From Leptospiraceae bacterium (GTDB taxonomy: Bacteria > Spirochaetota > Leptospiria > Leptospirales > Leptonemataceae), in NCBI GenBank assembly GCA_040217195.1, contig JAVJNR010000005.1, positions 320,001-384,000 on the forward strand: a stretch of DNA of 64,000 bases, written 5' to 3'. The notes under the pieces are model-generated. The model made no database searches. It worked only from the letters and a program-made list of their open reading frames with translations, and was not told the DNA's origin. This document shows positions 4,964 to 53,390 of the stretch, piece after piece. The first letter of the stretch is position 1. Every line of letters starts with the position of its first letter. The position numbers and the translations under genes are program-made.

Positions 4964-5156
4964 CGCGTTTGGAATCTGCGATGATTGGCCCGATCGAATT
5001 GCCAGAGTCAAGGTAATCGCATCAGCGAAGTATCCAAAGAAATCAAATTGGAACGTCGCAGCAAGATGCATGAGCAACCCAGTATGGAAATCGAACTTAG
5101 CATATAACCACATGGATACTCGGTCAGTGCGATGCTTGTTGTCTTCACCGGAGCTA

Positions 5157-5498
5157 TCCGCGCAGTTCTGAACCCGGAGTTTGCCTTAAAAGCACCGTCC
5201 GCACATTTCCGAACCCGGAGTTCGCTTTAAAAGCACCATCCGCGCATTTCTGAATCCGGAGTTCGCCTAAAAACCACCATCCGCGCATTTCTGAAACCGG
5301 AGTTCGCCTAAAAACCTCCATCCGCGCATTTCCGAACCCGGAGTTCGCCCTAAATCCGCCATCCGCACATTTCCGAACCCGGAGTTCACCTGATAAGCAC
5401 CGTCCGCGCATTTCTGAACCCGGAGTTCACCTGAGAAGCACCGTCCGCGCATTTCCGAAACCGGAGTTCGCCTTAAAAGCACCGTCCGCACATTTCTG
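5157..5498. repeat. 41-bp tandem repeat, 8 full copies + 1 partial
   Basis: Consensus TCCGCGCATTTCYGAAMCCGGAGTTCRCCTWAAAAGCACCR at an exact 41-bp period from 5157 to 5484, partial copy to 5498. Confidence 0.95.
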
Positions 5499-7106: not shown

Positions 7107-8774
<1,668 letters not shown>

Positions 8775-12445: not shown

Positions 12446-12835
12446 ATGTCTAATATTCCTGATAATCTTAAATATACAAAAGACCATGAATGGGCTCTCC
12501 AGGAAGGAGATTCAGTCAAGGTCGGAATTACGGACTATGCTCAGAACTCTCTCGGCGATATAGTCTATGTTGAGGTTCGAGAGCAAGGAAACGAGGTAAA
12601 TCAGGGCGATAGTTTTGGAACCATTGAGTCGGTGAAGGCCGCAGAGGATCTGTACGCTCCCATCAAAGGAAACGTGGCTGAAGTGAACGATGACGTACTA
12701 AATGGCCCGGAAAAAGTAAACTCGGACCCCTACGGATCGTGGCTAATCAAGATGACTGGAGTCGACCAGGGAGAATTGGATGCCCTGATGGATCCGGCCG
12801 CCTATAAAGAATTCGTAGCTTCTCTCGAAGAATAA
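12446..12835 (+). CDS. gcvH: Glycine cleavage system H protein
   Basis: YTKDHEW, GITDYAQ, IESVKAA lipoyl lysine. Confidence 0.97.
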   Translation: MSNIPDNLKYTKDHEWALQEGDSVKVGITDYAQNSLGDIVYVEVREQGNEVNQGDSFGTIESVKAAEDLYAPIKGNVAEVNDDVLNGPEKVNSDPYGSWLIKMTGVDQGELDALMDPAAYKEFVASLEE

Positions 12836-12871: not shown

Positions 12872-13660
12872 ATTGTGTCTAACATTGCATGGCCACTGAA
12901 AGCTGGCCAGACACTAGTCCCTGAACCCGCATCCGCTCTAAATGGCATCCGAACCGCAACGGCCCGCATACCTTCTCGGACGACAGGAGCAAACCACCCT
13001 CGGGACGCAACTGAATGTGCCTAATCGCGGTGCTGAACCAGTGGCCGCTACTTAACCCTGGCGAATCCGGTGCTCACAACTGGCATGTTTTGTCATTACT
13101 ACTGCGACTCCCCCACTTCAGGATAGACAGAGGGGCCTGGCCTCAGCTCGTGCGGGCAGATTATGTCTCTTCCTCCAGAGAATGGCCTGCCCCATTGTTC
13201 GGTCCAGGCTAGTTTGCCCCCAATTATTATGTCACATCGTGCAACGGAGTGGCTCCTGAGCCGGCATCCGGGGCCCATCAAAGAGATGAAGCCCCGATTA
13301 TGTCACATCCCAACTCCAGCTTCTGGACCAGAAGCCAGTTTCGAGCCGAAGCGTAGCCGGGATTATGTCGCATTAGGCAGTGATATACTCCCGCATTCCC
13401 GGCGGATGTTGGGATGTTGATTCAGGACGGTTTGGCCGGATGATTGCCTGATCTGCGATAGATTGCATCGACACGCAGTCTCCAGTAAGCCCTGTGGGAC
13501 GGGATTATTTCGCATTACCGAATTAATTCCACTGGACTGCCCTCCAGGTGCAAAGCGGAGTCTTCAGCGCAAATTATGTCACATTGCAGAAAAAGGGTTC
13601 TCTCTTAAAAATTCGATCAGCTCAATTCGGCAGCGATCGACCCAGATTCTGTCACATTAG
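12872..13660. repeat. Interspaced array of an ATTATGTC[A/G]CAT motif at ~70-bp period
   Basis: Strong copies at 13160, 13226, 13297, 13362, 13504, 13573, 13646; weak in-phase copies at 12872, 13014, 13087; spacers unique. Confidence 0.8.
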
Positions 13661-14003
13661 TCAGAAATGCAACTCCCTGAAAGCGTAATCGAATAGTGCA
13701 ACCGGCGAACCGAATCAGGGGCCACTCTTACAGCGTATAGAGAGAGTGGGCGATTTTCCGAATCGATGGGCTCTCCCTACCCCCGGCGGCTCCGAACACT
13801 GGCATCCAGGGTCATCCGGGCGGATCCAGAGTCTCGGGAAGGGCGCCCCCCGGGCCTGAGTGTCTGATAAGCCCCCTCCTGTGCAGCATTCCAAGCATGT
13901 GACTTAAAATTTGCTGGCCAAGGTACGCCGTCCTGCAAAAATGCTTTTCATATCGAGACTTTTTGATATGTTGATATGACAGCCCCTTATCAGGAGAGCA
14001 AAA

Positions 14004-15329
14004 GTGAAATATTTTCCCATTTCCCCGGAACAGATGGAGGATCGGCTCCAATCCATAGGATTTTCGAGTACATCTGACCTATTTCGATCCATTCCCGAAG
14101 CGCTTCGAGTCCGTACTGATGCCAGGTTGCCAGCTCCGGCCTCTGAAATCGAAATCCGCCGGGAATACCAGCCTAAAGAAAGCGCCGCCATAGATCACAA
14201 CTTCATGGGAGGTAATGGTCATTACCATTATGTGCCTTCCATCATCGATCCTCTTATTTCCAGGGGAGAATTCCTCACAGCCTATACCCCGTATCAACCG
14301 GAGGTGAGCCAGGGCAGCCTCCAGGCAATGTTCGAGTTTCAGTCCATGATGGCAGACCTGATGGGCGTAGAGGTCTCCAATGCATCCCTCTATGACGGCT
14401 CCACAGCCATGATTGAAGCGGCCATGATGGCGGTCCGTGTTCGAAGGAAGAATCGAGTGGTATTCGCAGATTCCATCCATCCGGAGTATCTGGAGACAAT
14501 GCAGACCTACGCCAACAGCGGCGTGTTCGAAACTGCAATGATTAAAACCTCTCAGGATGGCCGGCTGGATATTGCTTCTCTAAAAGAGAATCTGAACGAT
14601 GACACAGCCGCTCTGGTAATCCAGTCCCCGAACTACTATGGAATCATCGAAGACGTTGCTGCTGTAAAAAAAGAACTGGAACAGCACAACATCCTGCTCA
14701 TCGTCACGGTAACCGAAGCACTGTCCATGGCTCTGGTCAAGTCCCCTGGAAGTCAGGGTGCTGACATCGTATGTGGTGAAGCTCAGTCTTTTGGAGTTCC
14801 ACTTTCCTATGGTGGACCCTGGCTTGGGTTTATTGGAACATCTCAGAAACATATGCGAAGCCTTCCCGGTCGATTGATTGGGGAAGCGAAAGATATGGAT
14901 GGTCGAAGAGCTTTTGTTGTGACTCTTGCAGCAAGAGAACAGCATATTCGCCGACAAAAGGCCACTTCCAATATCTGCACAAACCAGGGACTGATGGCCC
15001 TTCGTTGCACCATTTATCTGGAGTTGATGGGTAAGAAAGGACTTCGAAGGGCGGCCGAGCGTAGCGCCCGATTTGCCGCCCTGGGACGACAACTCTTACG
15101 GGAACAAACAGATCTCAAGCTAAAGTATCCGGATTCCCCCATATTTAACGAATTCATGATTGAAACTCCGGTGCCTGCAGAAACGGTCTTTGATCGATGC
15201 ATTAAAGGTTCGAAAATTGCCTGCGGTACGGTAGCCGGTCCAAATCAGTTGCTCATAGCATTTAATGAAACAATGAGCCCCGAGGCAGTGAAGCAATGGG
15301 TGCTATCTGTAAAGGCTGCCTCCAAATAG
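14004..15329 (+). CDS. gcvPA: Glycine dehydrogenase subunit 1
   Basis: TAYTPYQPEVSQG, NASLYDG, GGPWLG, REQHIRR.KATSNICTNQ; GTG start with GGAG RBS. Confidence 0.96.
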   Translation: MKYFPISPEQMEDRLQSIGFSSTSDLFRSIPEALRVRTDARLPAPASEIEIRREYQPKESAAIDHNFMGGNGHYHYVPSIIDPLISRGEFLTAYTPYQPEVSQGSLQAMFEFQSMMADLMGVEVSNASLYDGSTAMIEAAMMAVRVRRKNRVVFADSIHPEYLETMQTYANSGVFETAMIKTSQDGRLDIASLKENLNDDTAALVIQSPNYYGIIEDVAAVKKELEQHNILLIVTVTEALSMALVKSPGSQGADIVCGEAQSFGVPLSYGGPWLGFIGTSQKHMRSLPGRLIGEAKDMDGRRAFVVTLAAREQHIRRQKATSNICTNQGLMALRCTIYLELMGKKGLRRAAERSARFAALGRQLLREQTDLKLKYPDSPIFNEFMIETPVPAETVFDRCIKGSKIACGTVAGPNQLLIAFNETMSPEAVKQWVLSVKAASK

Positions 15330-17825: not shown

Positions 17826-18848
17826 CTAACCTCCGGCGCCGTTTTGGGAAGCCTCCAGTTGCCTTAAGAAAAATGCCATGCTGGACACAACCTGATGCAC
17901 CCGAAGAGGAAGATCCAGTCCATACTGAACCGTTCCATGGGAAATCAACGGAGTAAGGCAAACCCTTGCTGGAACATGATCCCTTAGATGATCATAGAGC
18001 AGCCGGGACTCCCCCGGAGGAATAACATTGTCCCGGTCCCCATGGATCAAAGTAACCGATGCCTGAATATCTGGACAATGTTGAATAACATCAATTCTTG
18101 CTGCAATCTTGCGAATCTCTGGATGATTCAGGATTCTATCCTTGATGCTTCGCCTGTAAGATGCATCGTGCAATATACGATAGAACTCCTTGCGAACGGC
18201 AGGACTCACATTGGCCAGAACAACAGGCAGTTGACGCGGATTTCTGTTCAGGCCATTGTCCAGAGCAGCCTGTTCAAAGCAATGCCTGAGACTCTGCACC
18301 TTCTTGCTTTTACCCGGTAGAAAGTTTTTTAGTACAACAAAAAAGCCATAGGGATCCCTGTCTTCAGCATCGAAGAGATGTTCCACAACAGACATTACGT
18401 GTCCAAAGGGCCCCACAAAGAGCATTGCCTTCACACTTCCAGCTGCCTTTCCGGAAGCAGCCACCATAGCCAGTGATCCAGAAAAAGAAGCAGAAAAGAC
18501 TCCTACCGGCCCCCGATTGTCCAGTTTTGAAAGTGCCATTAGATCATCTTCCATATGATGGATGCTTTCCGGATTCACGGTAAGGTTGCGAATTTCACTG
18601 TAATCAGGTAGAATCACTTCATAGCCGTTCGCAGCAAAGGCGCTGGCCAGAACATGAATTCTGGGATCCTCATTTCCCCTGGCAGTCATTCCATGTACGG
18701 CCAGAAGGGTTCCTCTAAAAGAACCATCCTCCGGTAGCACCCGAATCGCCTGCCTGCCATTCAAAGTGATGCGGGAATGCTTGCCATAGGAACGGAGACC
18801 TCTGAACATGCGGAAAACAATGCTGAGGCCTCGGCTGTAGTATCCCAT
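17826..18848 (-). CDS. Alpha/beta hydrolase-fold protein
   Basis: VHGM, nucleophile-elbow-like SASFSG, IHGDRDNVIP, C-terminal ISH. Confidence 0.75.
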   Translation of the reverse strand: MGYYSRGLSIVFRMFRGLRSYGKHSRITLNGRQAIRVLPEDGSFRGTLLAVHGMTARGNEDPRIHVLASAFAANGYEVILPDYSEIRNLTVNPESIHHMEDDLMALSKLDNRGPVGVFSASFSGSLAMVAASGKAAGSVKAMLFVGPFGHVMSVVEHLFDAEDRDPYGFFVVLKNFLPGKSKKVQSLRHCFEQAALDNGLNRNPRQLPVVLANVSPAVRKEFYRILHDASYRRSIKDRILNHPEIRKIAARIDVIQHCPDIQASVTLIHGDRDNVIPPGESRLLYDHLRDHVPARVCLTPLISHGTVQYGLDLPLRVHQVVSSMAFFLRQLEASQNGAGG

Positions 18849-18896
18849 GGCCCCATCAGCTTATACCAAACTCAGGAAGCAATACAGATTTCAATT

Positions 18897-19907
18897 ATGG
18901 ACTTGCAGGAAACAGAACGAATGCCCAAATCCGAACGTCTGGGCTGTCTGTATTTGACCTTTCTGCAAAGGCCCGGCGGCTTGAGCTTTGAGGAGATCCG
19001 TACCCTTATGCCGCTAGCCTATACTGGCGAACCGGAATCTGCACGTCGGAAATTTGAAAGAGATAAAGAGGATCTTAAAAAACTTGGACTCACCCTGAAG
19101 CATTACTCACCAGGTGAAGCTCTTCCGGATCGAATTGGAATGGCAGACAGTCATCTGTATATTCCTGAAGATGTACCGGAGCAACTGGATAGCATTTCTC
19201 TATCATCGCGAGAAAGGGAATCACTGGCCTCCCTCCTGCTAAGATCCATTGAGTCCGAAAAAGACAATCAGAGAAAAGAGAATCTAACGTCCATCTACAT
19301 CAAACTATTCTATAACAATTTACCCGGAGAGCTACCCGGACGTAGTCCACTACTGCGGAGCGAAAGCCAATCTCATCTGTCCCCTCATTTAAATGTGGTG
19401 CAGGAATCCCTGATGAAATCCAGGGTGCTGGATGCCCGGTATGAACCCGCGGCTGGAGGTCTGGAAAAAAGGACCCTGGAAGGCCGGGGATTGATCTACT
19501 ACAGAGGTCGATGGTGTCTGGTGGCCCGATCCAGAGAAAGTGGTCAAATTCGTTTTTATTACCTGGAACGATTCAAGAGCCTGAAGCTGGGAGCGGGCAC
19601 TTTTAAGCCGGACCCTGGATTTAACCTGAAGTCCATGTCCTTGCATCCGCTGGGCATTGAAATCCATGAAGAACGAACCATCACCGTAGAAATTACCAGA
19701 GCCTTTGGTCCCATGTTCTCGAATTTCCTTTCCGGCAATGAAGAAAAGATCAGTCGGAATAAGGATGAATACAAAATCCAGACAACCAATGAGCGAGCCC
19801 TTTTCCGATGGATTCTTCAACGTCCAGAATCGTTGATTCGGATGGATTCGGAAGCGGCCAGCAGAATGGATGCTTTCCTGGCAGAAATTGAGGAGCTGTA
19901 TAAGTAA
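18897..19907 (+). CDS. WYL-domain transcriptional regulator, PafB-like
   Basis: N-terminal wHTH with ARRKFERDKEDLKKLG; WYL core GRWCLVA...RFYYLERF; start may be 18921. Confidence 0.85.
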   Translation: MDLQETERMPKSERLGCLYLTFLQRPGGLSFEEIRTLMPLAYTGEPESARRKFERDKEDLKKLGLTLKHYSPGEALPDRIGMADSHLYIPEDVPEQLDSISLSSRERESLASLLLRSIESEKDNQRKENLTSIYIKLFYNNLPGELPGRSPLLRSESQSHLSPHLNVVQESLMKSRVLDARYEPAAGGLEKRTLEGRGLIYYRGRWCLVARSRESGQIRFYYLERFKSLKLGAGTFKPDPGFNLKSMSLHPLGIEIHEERTITVEITRAFGPMFSNFLSGNEEKISRNKDEYKIQTTNERALFRWILQRPESLIRMDSEAASRMDAFLAEIEELYK

Positions 19908-19908
19908 G

Positions 19909-20865
19909 ATGCCAACTCCGGACAAATTGAAGAGATTGCTGTCTCTCATTCCTGTCATGCATGCCAATCCAGGAATCAAGATTGAAAAGCTCATGTCCCT
20001 GAGCGGGTACTCGGATCGAAAGAAGTTTACCGAGGACCTGGATAACCTCATTATGCTGGGTGTTCCCCCTTTCTCGCCCGGCGACTATGTAGACATTGCC
20101 ATCGAAGGAGATTCGGTGACTCTGGAGTTTCCCCAGGGGCTGGAAAGGCCGCTGGCCCTTTCTGCTCTGGAATGGTCCGAGCTCATAGATGCAATTCAAA
20201 AGGATATGTCTTTTCGCACAGATCAGGGATTGAATCAGGAAGAGCTCTCAGGACTGCTGGAAAGAGTGGGCAAAACTCCGGTACTATTTGAGAAGCCTCC
20301 TACGGCGGACCAGAGTCGAAGAACCATCGAACAAGCATTGAGTGAAAAACAGGCTGTGATTTTTTTATATCCGGATCGAAAGCAGCAGTCCATGGAAGAA
20401 CGTTTTGTGGATCCCTGGGCCGTAGTTACTCACCTGGGCTTAATCTATCTCGTAGGATGGGATCGAAACAAAGAGGCTCCCAGACATTTTCGTATGGACC
20501 GGGCCGGAGAGATCCGCATCAGCCCGGAAACTAGACTGGAGCCCCCTCCTGCTGACCTGGCTTCCATGATCGAGAACTCCTACATTAAGAATCCTCTGGA
20601 AACATCCGGAGATGCTAGCATTGCGTTTCGGGCATCGGTACAGAAGAACCTGCAGCGAATTCTATCTCTGTCATCTGTGAAGGACTATTCGGATCGGCCT
20701 GGCTGGAAGAAGGCTCGGTGCTCCATTAGAGATACTGCCTGGTTTAGAGAGGTGATTCGCTCCTTTGGAGAAACCATTGAGATTCTGTCCCCTGAGGAAT
20801 TGCGCCAGGAAATCCAGGAAGATGTTCATAACCTGAGGCAAAAACTTCAGGCCTACCAGAATTGA
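19909..20865 (+). CDS. WYL-domain transcriptional regulator, PafC-like
   Basis: RLLSLIP...MLGVPPFSPGDYVDI; ERFVDPW...YLVGWD...RHFRMDR; WCX tail EILSPEELR. Confidence 0.87.
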   Translation: MPTPDKLKRLLSLIPVMHANPGIKIEKLMSLSGYSDRKKFTEDLDNLIMLGVPPFSPGDYVDIAIEGDSVTLEFPQGLERPLALSALEWSELIDAIQKDMSFRTDQGLNQEELSGLLERVGKTPVLFEKPPTADQSRRTIEQALSEKQAVIFLYPDRKQQSMEERFVDPWAVVTHLGLIYLVGWDRNKEAPRHFRMDRAGEIRISPETRLEPPPADLASMIENSYIKNPLETSGDASIAFRASVQKNLQRILSLSSVKDYSDRPGWKKARCSIRDTAWFREVIRSFGETIEILSPEELRQEIQEDVHNLRQKLQAYQN

Positions 20866-20892: not shown

Positions 20893-21975
20893 ATGGAGCC
20901 CAGCACCCCGGTCGGCTTTTTCGGGAATTTACATCCAGTCCTCCAGGGTACTAACGTACCTGCCGAAAATGTTACTGTGGCTGTTGCGGAAGAGTACCAG
21001 AGTTATTTACAAAGCTTTAGAACCAACCTTGAGGTAGAAAGAGATCTTTCTCCACACAGTGTCAGAGCCTATCTTTCGGACCTGGAAGAGTTTCTGCTAT
21101 TTCTGCAATCCGAAGATTTGCAACCCGAGCAATGTGATGCCAGGATACTTCGCTCCTTTTTTACAGCTCGCACCGGAGTTGATTTCTCTCGAAATCCTCT
21201 AAAGTCCGATCCACGGGCGGTAACCGGAAAAACAGGTCACAGAAAACTATCGGCCAGAAGTCAGGCCAGAAAACTATCCACACTACGATTGTTCTTTCGT
21301 CAGTTAATGAAGCAGGGTAAGATCAAATCCAATCCAGCCAGAGATTTGCCCTCTCCCAGATTTTATCGCGCTCTTCCTGGAGTACTGCGTCCTGGAGAAC
21401 TGGAAAATGTTCTGGAGGCACCCACATCCACTGAATCCATCGAGCCCAATCGAAGACTGCGCAAAGACGTAGGCGAAGCGGTTAAGTCCAGAGACAGGGC
21501 TATTTTTGAAACACTGTATTCCACAGGTATGCGAATCTCCGAATTATTGTCCCTCAATCTGGACGATGTAGAAAACCTTCCCGATCGAATCAAGATCACA
21601 GGTAAAGGAAGCAAGCAGCGAATTGTATTTGTGGGCGAAGAAGCCAGGCTTGCTCTTGCCCGATACATGAAATTAAGGCCTCAACTACGTCCGGAGAATG
21701 GTGCCCTATTTTGCAACGCCAGGGGCGGTCCACTTACTGATCGTGGAGTGCGCGACCGAATGCAGAAGTATGCCCGCCAGCTCGGTTTGAGCAAATTGCA
21801 TCCACATAAGCTTCGACATTCCTTTGCCACAGATCTATTGAATGAAGGCGCAGACATTCGAGCAGTGCAGGAGATGCTGGGACATAGCAGCCTTTCCACA
21901 ACGCAGATCTATACATCGGTCAGCAAGGACCGTCTCAGGGATATTTATCGCAACTGCCACCCCAGAGGGCATTGA
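20893..21975 (+). CDS. xerC: XerC/XerD-type tyrosine recombinase
   Basis: SAM-like N domain; TGMRISE, GKGSKQR, HPHKLRHSFAT, LGHSSLSTTQIYT; start uncertain. Confidence 0.8.
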   Translation: MEPSTPVGFFGNLHPVLQGTNVPAENVTVAVAEEYQSYLQSFRTNLEVERDLSPHSVRAYLSDLEEFLLFLQSEDLQPEQCDARILRSFFTARTGVDFSRNPLKSDPRAVTGKTGHRKLSARSQARKLSTLRLFFRQLMKQGKIKSNPARDLPSPRFYRALPGVLRPGELENVLEAPTSTESIEPNRRLRKDVGEAVKSRDRAIFETLYSTGMRISELLSLNLDDVENLPDRIKITGKGSKQRIVFVGEEARLALARYMKLRPQLRPENGALFCNARGGPLTDRGVRDRMQKYARQLGLSKLHPHKLRHSFATDLLNEGADIRAVQEMLGHSSLSTTQIYTSVSKDRLRDIYRNCHPRGH

Positions 21976-53224: not shown

Positions 53225-53390
53225 AGCGCGCCTGTGTGCCTTCTTTATTATGTCGCATTAAAAAGAGCAATCAAAAAAAGACCGAAGGCATTTCGGGTCA
53301 GGCCTAAAAAGACTACCGTCGCATGTATAGCATATCATTAGTAATTCGAGGGTTAAAAAAGAGAGATTCGCTTAACATACAATAAGCGAA

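Follow-up and report, generated by a model that had tools for sequence, protein, structure and literature searches.

Between gcvH and gcvPA, genome G000 (4.61 Mb in 10 contigs) carries a non-coding gap in which a short word returns about every 70 bp between spacers that look unrelated. What is this word, which protein would read it, and how did the row arise? We addressed these questions in the window, which is the whole 64,000-nucleotide stretch analyzed (G000:C4:320001-384000), and by comparison with other genomes. The initial annotation had listed four options for the locus, namely a guide or ncRNA cassette array, a stack of tyrosine-recombinase integration scars, a protein-binding array and a heavily decayed tandem repeat.

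The repeated word between gcvH and gcvPA

The gcvH-gcvPA gap measures 1168 bp and holds seven copies of ATTATGTCNCAT with 0-1 mismatch, at the starts that had been reported (13160, 13226, 13297, 13362, 13504, 13573 and 13646). None of 2000 dinucleotide shuffles of the gap contained more than one such copy. The proposed periodicity was also confirmed, with a best period of 69.5 bp and a phase coherence of 0.98, and this phasing was matched by 0 of 5000 random placements in which the two end copies were held fixed. Weaker in-phase copies had been suggested upstream; those at 12872 and 13014 were recovered, and the third sits best at 13085 instead of 13087. The copy at 12872 has 3 mismatches (chance of about 0.005 per 9-bp window), and those at 13014 and 13085 have 4 each (chance of about 0.04 for 13085). 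At the in-phase slots near 12943, 13438 and 13717, matches were at chance level only. The inverted copy that had been placed just before gcvPA is present at 13897-13908 with 2 mismatches and is retained by 4 of 6 genomes in the genus, where its sole change falls on the degenerate position (A, T, G, T). The features are collected in Table 1.

Table 1. Positions of the array, its flanks and other features within the window
Feature	Position	Strand	Basis
gcvH, left flank	12446..12835	+	Pfam GCV_H
Decayed in-phase upstream copies (12872, 13014, 13085)	12872..13096	+	Mismatch scan
Core array of seven XerD-arm words ATTATGTCNCAT, slot near 13438 decayed, without XerC arm	13160..13657	+	Word match, phasing
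Inverted XerD-arm variant, 5' edge of the conserved block before gcvPA	13897..13908	-	Cross-genome comparison
Conserved non-coding block before gcvPA, 85-95% identity in six genomes	13897..14003	+	Alignment
gcvPA, right flank	14004..15329	+	Pfam GDC-P
xerC-like recombinase gene	20893..21975	+	Best match to the XerC family, with 296.9 bits against a cut-off of 335
One exact copy of the word, 23 bp ahead of a minus-strand gene	53247..53258	+	Word match

The gap cannot be aligned between species, and Tandem Repeats Finder did not detect the array. Three short ORFs (60-85 aa) overlap it. A sigma-70 scan returned 0 promoters, and terminator-like matches numbered 4 versus 1.2+/-1.3 in shuffles. We also considered that the 70-bp period might represent two 35-bp units with alternate copies decayed, which was ruled out, as neither a half-phase residue nor a half-phase copy was found. 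The conserved block before gcvPA is probably a promoter or operator together with a ribosome-binding site. Within it, positions 13942-13990 are near-invariant in six genomes and hold an inverted repeat, CATATC-N10-GATATG, and a direct repeat, TTGATATG; this part is likely the operator of some regulator. The single exact copy of the word elsewhere in the window recurs at a similar distance from gcv in three relatives (G005, G004 and G002).

Spacers and the RNA readings

The spacers are mutually unrelated, as the initial annotation had stated: their alignment was no better than that of shuffles (24 of 300 were as good), and 0 of 10 pairs reached z>4. The four inverted repeats quoted from them all exist as written, but hairpins are no commoner than chance, with 5 stems in the gap versus 4.9 in shuffles and 283 of 500 shuffles holding as many. 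When individual units were folded, 0 of 24 reached z<-2. Searches with the spacers returned no match in phages and only chance 15-19-mers in the genome itself.

At the gcv locus alone, the period of about 70 bp and the unique spacers resemble a CRISPR array, and a row of guide-RNA or ncRNA cassettes processed at the short repeat would account for both. However, this reading meets no fold signal, no Rfam family (neither the window nor the gap gave anything at the gathering threshold or at E<=1) and no Cas1, which is absent from 7 of 7 genomes of the genus. The repeat is a 12-15-bp word that corresponds to a known DNA-binding site, in contrast to CRISPR repeats of 20-50 bp with accompanying cas genes, and the spacers of sister arrays come from duplication. 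Additionally, units at the orthologous locus measure 34 and 37 bp in two other species, and this two-fold variation of unit length at the same locus counts against RNA cassettes and integration scars alike. We therefore regard an RNA cassette array as scarcely credible.

The word is the XerD arm of dif

A resemblance of the word to the E. coli XerD arm had been noticed before, and it proved to be more than a resemblance: the array word is identical to the right arm in the genome's own dif sites, which supports the protein-binding option. Genome G000 holds three complete Xer-type sites, each composed of TTCCGATAA, six bases and TTATGTCTCA(T/A), with one each on contigs C5, C8 and C9. Those on C5 and C8 sit at GC-skew switches, and KOPS-like words are polarised accordingly. 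The word itself occurs in 44 exact copies in the genome versus 2.5 expected, and 0 of 200 control words were as frequent. A dif-like site with this arm was found in 40 of 41 related genomes, and Supplementary Data 2c of PMC13342612 gives the dif of Leptospira biflexa chromosome 1 with the same arm as the copy at 13362. Passages in PMC5357621 and PMC3025954 assign the right dif arm to XerD and describe it as the more conserved one.

The likeness to chromosomal dif, the site of XerC, XerD and FtsK, extends beyond the identical 11-bp right arm into the adjoining spacer bases: the array-unit consensus, CYGGATTATGTCRCATT, also reproduces the end of the dif spacer and its flank. The units differ from dif in that they lack the left (XerC) arm, occur in many copies and lie away from the skew switch. 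At the canonical offset, a XerC arm was seen in 1 of 117 array units, which is the background level, and the units do not show the two 11-bp arms around a 6-8-bp core that define dif and pdif; half-sites of this kind cannot form a normal Xer synapse. An inverted partial arm stands at one fixed offset, one base wider than in dif, in 27 of the 117 units; the gcv array is without this element, which some of its sister arrays carry (1-3 of 7 matches). According to the published excerpts available on them, the pdif/dif modules of Acinetobacter plasmids are similar in having several Xer-type sites outside dif, and there too an inverted copy closes the row, but pdif are complete two-arm sites flanking genes, whereas here half-sites alternate with 20-60 bp of non-coding DNA.

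The XerD gene lies outside the window (G000:C10:700548-701408; 373.5 bits against a cut-off of 329.6), and its product is the likely binder of the array. That XerD binds the orphan arms appears quite probable. As a candidate of a different kind, parS was rejected for the word: a canonical parS, searched for with what we take to be the parS pattern, was found near the origin.

Directly before the xerC-like gene of the window, a PafB/PafC-like WYL gene pair occupies positions 18777-20865, and a PafC-type domain is present in 7 of 7 Leptospirales genomes tested. Could this WYL pair or a LexA-type repressor be the reader, with the match to dif being secondary? The core of the word, ATGTCACAT, is palindromic, arrays precede lexA and an imuA/polB-like operon, and the WYL pair lies 5 kb away. 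Against such a reader, the whole 11-bp arm and the dif flanks are matched, 8 of 18 word-rich genomes (the richest included) yielded no PafC-type gene, and any copy in the 500 bp before recA has at least 3 mismatches. We thus consider a WYL or LexA reader very unlikely.

Arrays elsewhere in the genome and the genus

The system is not confined to the gcv locus; a genome-wide motif scan returned at least four further arrays. In this position-weight-matrix scan only clusters were used, because shuffled-column controls were equally frequent below a score of 14. The four further arrays of G000 have periods of about 29-31, 33, 36 and 40 bp, and a pair lies on a plasmid-like contig. Arrays exist in all 7 genomes of the genus, as natural tandem rows of 4-14 copies with unrelated spacers and periods of 27-73 bp, and they occupy common intergenic loci. 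These loci include gcv, rpsD, groES, pth/M23 peptidase, lexA and an imuA-like gene (names read from translations, except gcv), and the units differ among them.

All 7 genomes of the genus have close direct pairs of the word. Such pairs were seen in 1 of 9 further genomes from the family and in 0 of 9 from Leptospiraceae, and pairs with wider spacing occurred in 10 of 121 genomes across the class. Among 185,579 genomes, a strict pattern matched 17 stretches, 15 of them titled Leptospirales, Turneriella or Spirochaetaceae and 2 Caldithrix. Of 9 loci returned by a metagenome search, the 3 that were close proved identical to genomes already in the set, and a viral scan gave 3 stretches, two of them duplicates.

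At the gcv locus of six genomes, the gap measures 1168, 718, 463, 953, 365 and 288 bp and holds, in the same order, 7, 6, 0, 4-6, 1 and 1 forward copies, with periods of 70, 34 and 37 bp. The gcv array is thus dispensable, as G004 has 0 forward copies and G003 and G001 have a single one each. The gap is shorter than 100 bp in all 8 further family members examined.

Two groES-groEL operons exist, at 7116-8774 of the window and at G000:C10:397682-399609, and an array precedes only the copy on C10. A second dnaA near the terminus has a single XerD arm before it, and parAB of the second replicon has a XerD-arm word on either side, at G000:C8:201483 and 203124. In two Leptospiraceae genomes, two arms form an inverted pair around a 6-bp core; this pair is located after parB, between boxes resembling -35 and -10.

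Origin and turnover of the arrays

Twenty arrays together span a series in which units range from identical to unrelated. Related spacers made up 16 of 259 pairs within arrays versus 10 of 2390 between arrays, and young homogeneous arrays in other lineages are plain tandem duplications. Homology along the whole unit was seen in the rpsD array of G000 and in the gcv arrays of G002 and G005; it is not detectable among the gcv-array units of G000. In six arrays, word identity was 0.81-1.0 and spacer identity 0.37-0.57 (0.39-0.45 when shuffled), a comparison with some circularity, since the word itself was used to find the units. The period stays uniform within an array even where the spacers are randomised.

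These data suggest a course of events in which a unit with one XerD arm would have been duplicated in tandem, after which the spacers would have drifted to randomness while selection kept each arm. For the gcv array, we infer the duplication step from its relatives. Since old arrays have randomised spacers and a preserved arm, selection for binding is implied. The option of a heavily decayed tandem repeat therefore describes the origin of the array, but it does not explain the persistence of the word.

The gcv array is also present, with substitutions and 1-bp indels, on contigs from four marine studies, and the parts that these contigs cover reveal none of the gain or loss of units between strains for which a comparison had been proposed. 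In one run, 16 of 508 and 7 of 151 bases of the array were substituted versus 0 of 359 and 0 of 267 in the flanking genes.

If the array were a record of Xer-mediated insertion or capture, each unit would be a scar or a short DNA captured at the XerD cleavage point, and the mutually unrelated gcv-array spacers of near-equal length could be read in this way. However, there is no XerC arm, and the spacers of 50-60 bp hold no passenger genes or other passenger DNA. Identical neighbouring units in sister arrays indicate duplication, the spacers match neither phages nor the rest of the genome beyond chance 15-19-mers, and the strain contigs, over the parts they cover, differ by substitutions and 1-bp indels but neither gain nor lose units. 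We find the integration-scar option, which the initial annotation had entertained, barely plausible.

A further reading is that a selfish or neutral REP/BIME-like repeat carrying the XerD arm was amplified locally and that the gcv array is a decayed remnant with no present role. BIMEs are short repeats tied to nucleoid-protein sites. The genome is rich in tandem repeats (100 rows with periods of 20-120 bp), the word lies inside a dispersed repeat in G040 and a 31/39-bp unit occurs at 11 fetched loci in G235, and the inverted partial arm found in 27 of 117 units could be a relic hairpin. Nevertheless, the oldest arrays keep the word at 81-91% with spacers at random identity, whereas neutral decay would erode both. 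None of the 7 genomes of the genus yielded a Y1/RAYT transposase. Different species keep arrays of unrelated units at the same loci, and no palindromic unit is shared, as units differ between loci. A remnant without function is therefore unlikely. The arrays do share with REP/BIME and with matS, which a passage of PMC11894783 describes as the terminus-limited word of MatP, the principle of short repeated words recruiting a chromosome-organising protein; the word and the protein are different here, and no RAYT was found in the genus.

A second repeat family was observed in the same genome. A 41-bp tandem repeat of 8.3 copies at 5156-5496 of the window belongs to a palindromic family with the core GTTCGC[AC]T[AT]A, which is often terminated 27 bp further on by its reverse complement. 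This family has 91 matches and 15 clusters, and all clusters lie at 110-257 degrees, in the terminus half; its word resembles a XerC-type arm or a REP.

A putative XerD landing pad

Returning to binding of the arms by XerD, we propose that the gcv array is probably a row of XerD half-sites that serves as a non-recombining landing pad. There is no XerC arm and no normal synapse can form; therefore, binding rather than recombination is the likely use. Several XerD monomers would bind without XerC and without recombination, and the bound XerD would unload or stall SMC-ScpAB travelling from parS, producing a boundary on the chromosome arm. The halting or unloading of SMC by bound XerD, taken alone, is possible but more doubtful than the binding, and we suggest it by analogy with Bacillus. 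Genome G000 encodes SMC, ScpA and a canonical origin-proximal parS (the search covered SMC and ScpA).

Karaboja et al. 2021 (Mol Cell 81:756) reportedly introduced XDS as XerD-bound dif-like sites of Bacillus subtilis. Passages in PMC11840125, PMC11894783, PMC8357415 and PMC12322038 describe XerD unloading Smc-ScpAB at such dif-like sites in the Bacillus terminus, and PMC11840125 includes an account of an artificial XDS array that blocks Smc-ScpAB and makes a boundary. The present arrays are similar in that dif-like words lie away from dif and would be read by XerD, that SMC-ScpA and parS are encoded, and that the sequence is the XerD arm of the genome's own dif without a XerC arm. They differ in being natural tandem arrays on both chromosome arms, far from the terminus and in Spirochaetota, at loci that are common across the genus despite a complete turnover of units; XerD binding and unloading are predictions here.

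With the contig order inferred from synteny with G005, dif lies at 186 degrees and the gcv array, 529 kb away, at 230 degrees; the other arrays lie at 59, 75, 103 and 302 degrees. None of these five arrays is located at the terminus, as XDS are. An array that works like an XDS yet lies elsewhere is a variant, not a member, of that class. All five G000 arrays point towards the origin. Over all loci, strand polarity was 16 lagging versus 7 leading (p=0.09, not significant); the lexA arrays of relatives point the opposite way, and two Leptospiraceae genomes lean opposite. ScpA was also found in 2 of 3 tested genomes without orphan half-sites, so the presence of SMC does not predict orphans. The landing-pad reading, SMC role included, is weakened by the non-terminal arrays, by the dispensable gcv array and by ScpA in genomes without orphans. 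Recruitment of Topo IV was considered separately and not favoured, since in E. coli it depends on XerC and not on the XerD box, according to a passage of PMC4865107.

The main rival to the SMC role is that XerD acts as a transcription regulator or roadblock, with the arrays being amplified operators, here of a separate gcvPA promoter. Most of 28 loci are intergenic, many of them 15-350 bp before a start codon, and conserved single words precede the second-replicon parA, the second dnaA, rpsB and a ribonucleotide reductase gene. The Leptospiraceae inverted pair between promoter-like boxes after parAB, and the inverted copy adjoining the conserved block before gcvPA, also agree with an operator. 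However, the distances to starts range over 15-500 bp in both orientations, the neighbouring genes have no common pathway, and the forward array stops 350 bp before gcvPA and is missing in some species. Moreover, intergenic DNA is where any such site would be tolerated. Operator action as the explanation of the arrays is, in our judgment, rather unlikely.

We further speculate, tentatively, that XerD is a genome-wide insulator here, with arrays acting as copy-number-tuned SMC barriers that make domains and single words acting as operators at replication and partition genes. Were this so, the arrays would be a bacterial parallel to CTCF sites.

What has been known so far is a non-recombining role of XerD at the Bacillus terminus, with arm-located arrays as engineered constructs only. 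The mostly open-access literature searched, to which the original XDS paper did not belong, describes neither such arrays nor orphan XerD arms in Leptospirales. Natural arm arrays, renewed by duplication in each species, would mean that XerD places SMC barriers or roadblocks outside the terminus. This idea is directly testable, as the same word occurs as dispersed single copies in culturable Leptospira, for which a passage of PMC13342612 indicates existing Hi-C data.

Orphan words and XerD across the phylum

Among 201 genomes of the phylum, the word was enriched in ten families, and the enrichment was modest in f13. The dif of the ten enriched families carries the same arm, except for one genome (G172) without a dif match. 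In an alignment of 21 of about 200 XerD proteins, the motif RKS(V/A)WRLL, which we take to be part of the XerD recognition helix, was present in 12 of 12 proteins of enriched lineages versus 0 of 9 of unenriched lineages; this co-variation of XerD and word is confounded by kinship.

Orphan words are missing from lineages whose arm differs and from one lineage that has the same arm, and five genomes with the arm TTATGTCTACT have no orphans of that arm. The notion that orphans follow automatically from the arm was rejected, as five f15 genomes whose dif-like site ends in this XerD arm have 7-13 copies versus 14-28 for controls. A dif-like 24-mer recurs in f15 genomes G118, G136, G144, G163, G173, G198 and G203; it pairs an unusual left arm, TTCCACAA, with the same right arm and is probably their dif. 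In G040 (L035-L053), most sampled copies of the word lie inside a dispersed repeat that starts with a GTGGGAACTCC-type word. In G235 and G240 (L185-L200), young tandem units of 31, 39 and 43-44 bp form dispersed families, at 11 and 5 fetched loci, respectively, and each of these units combines one XerD arm with a second small palindrome.
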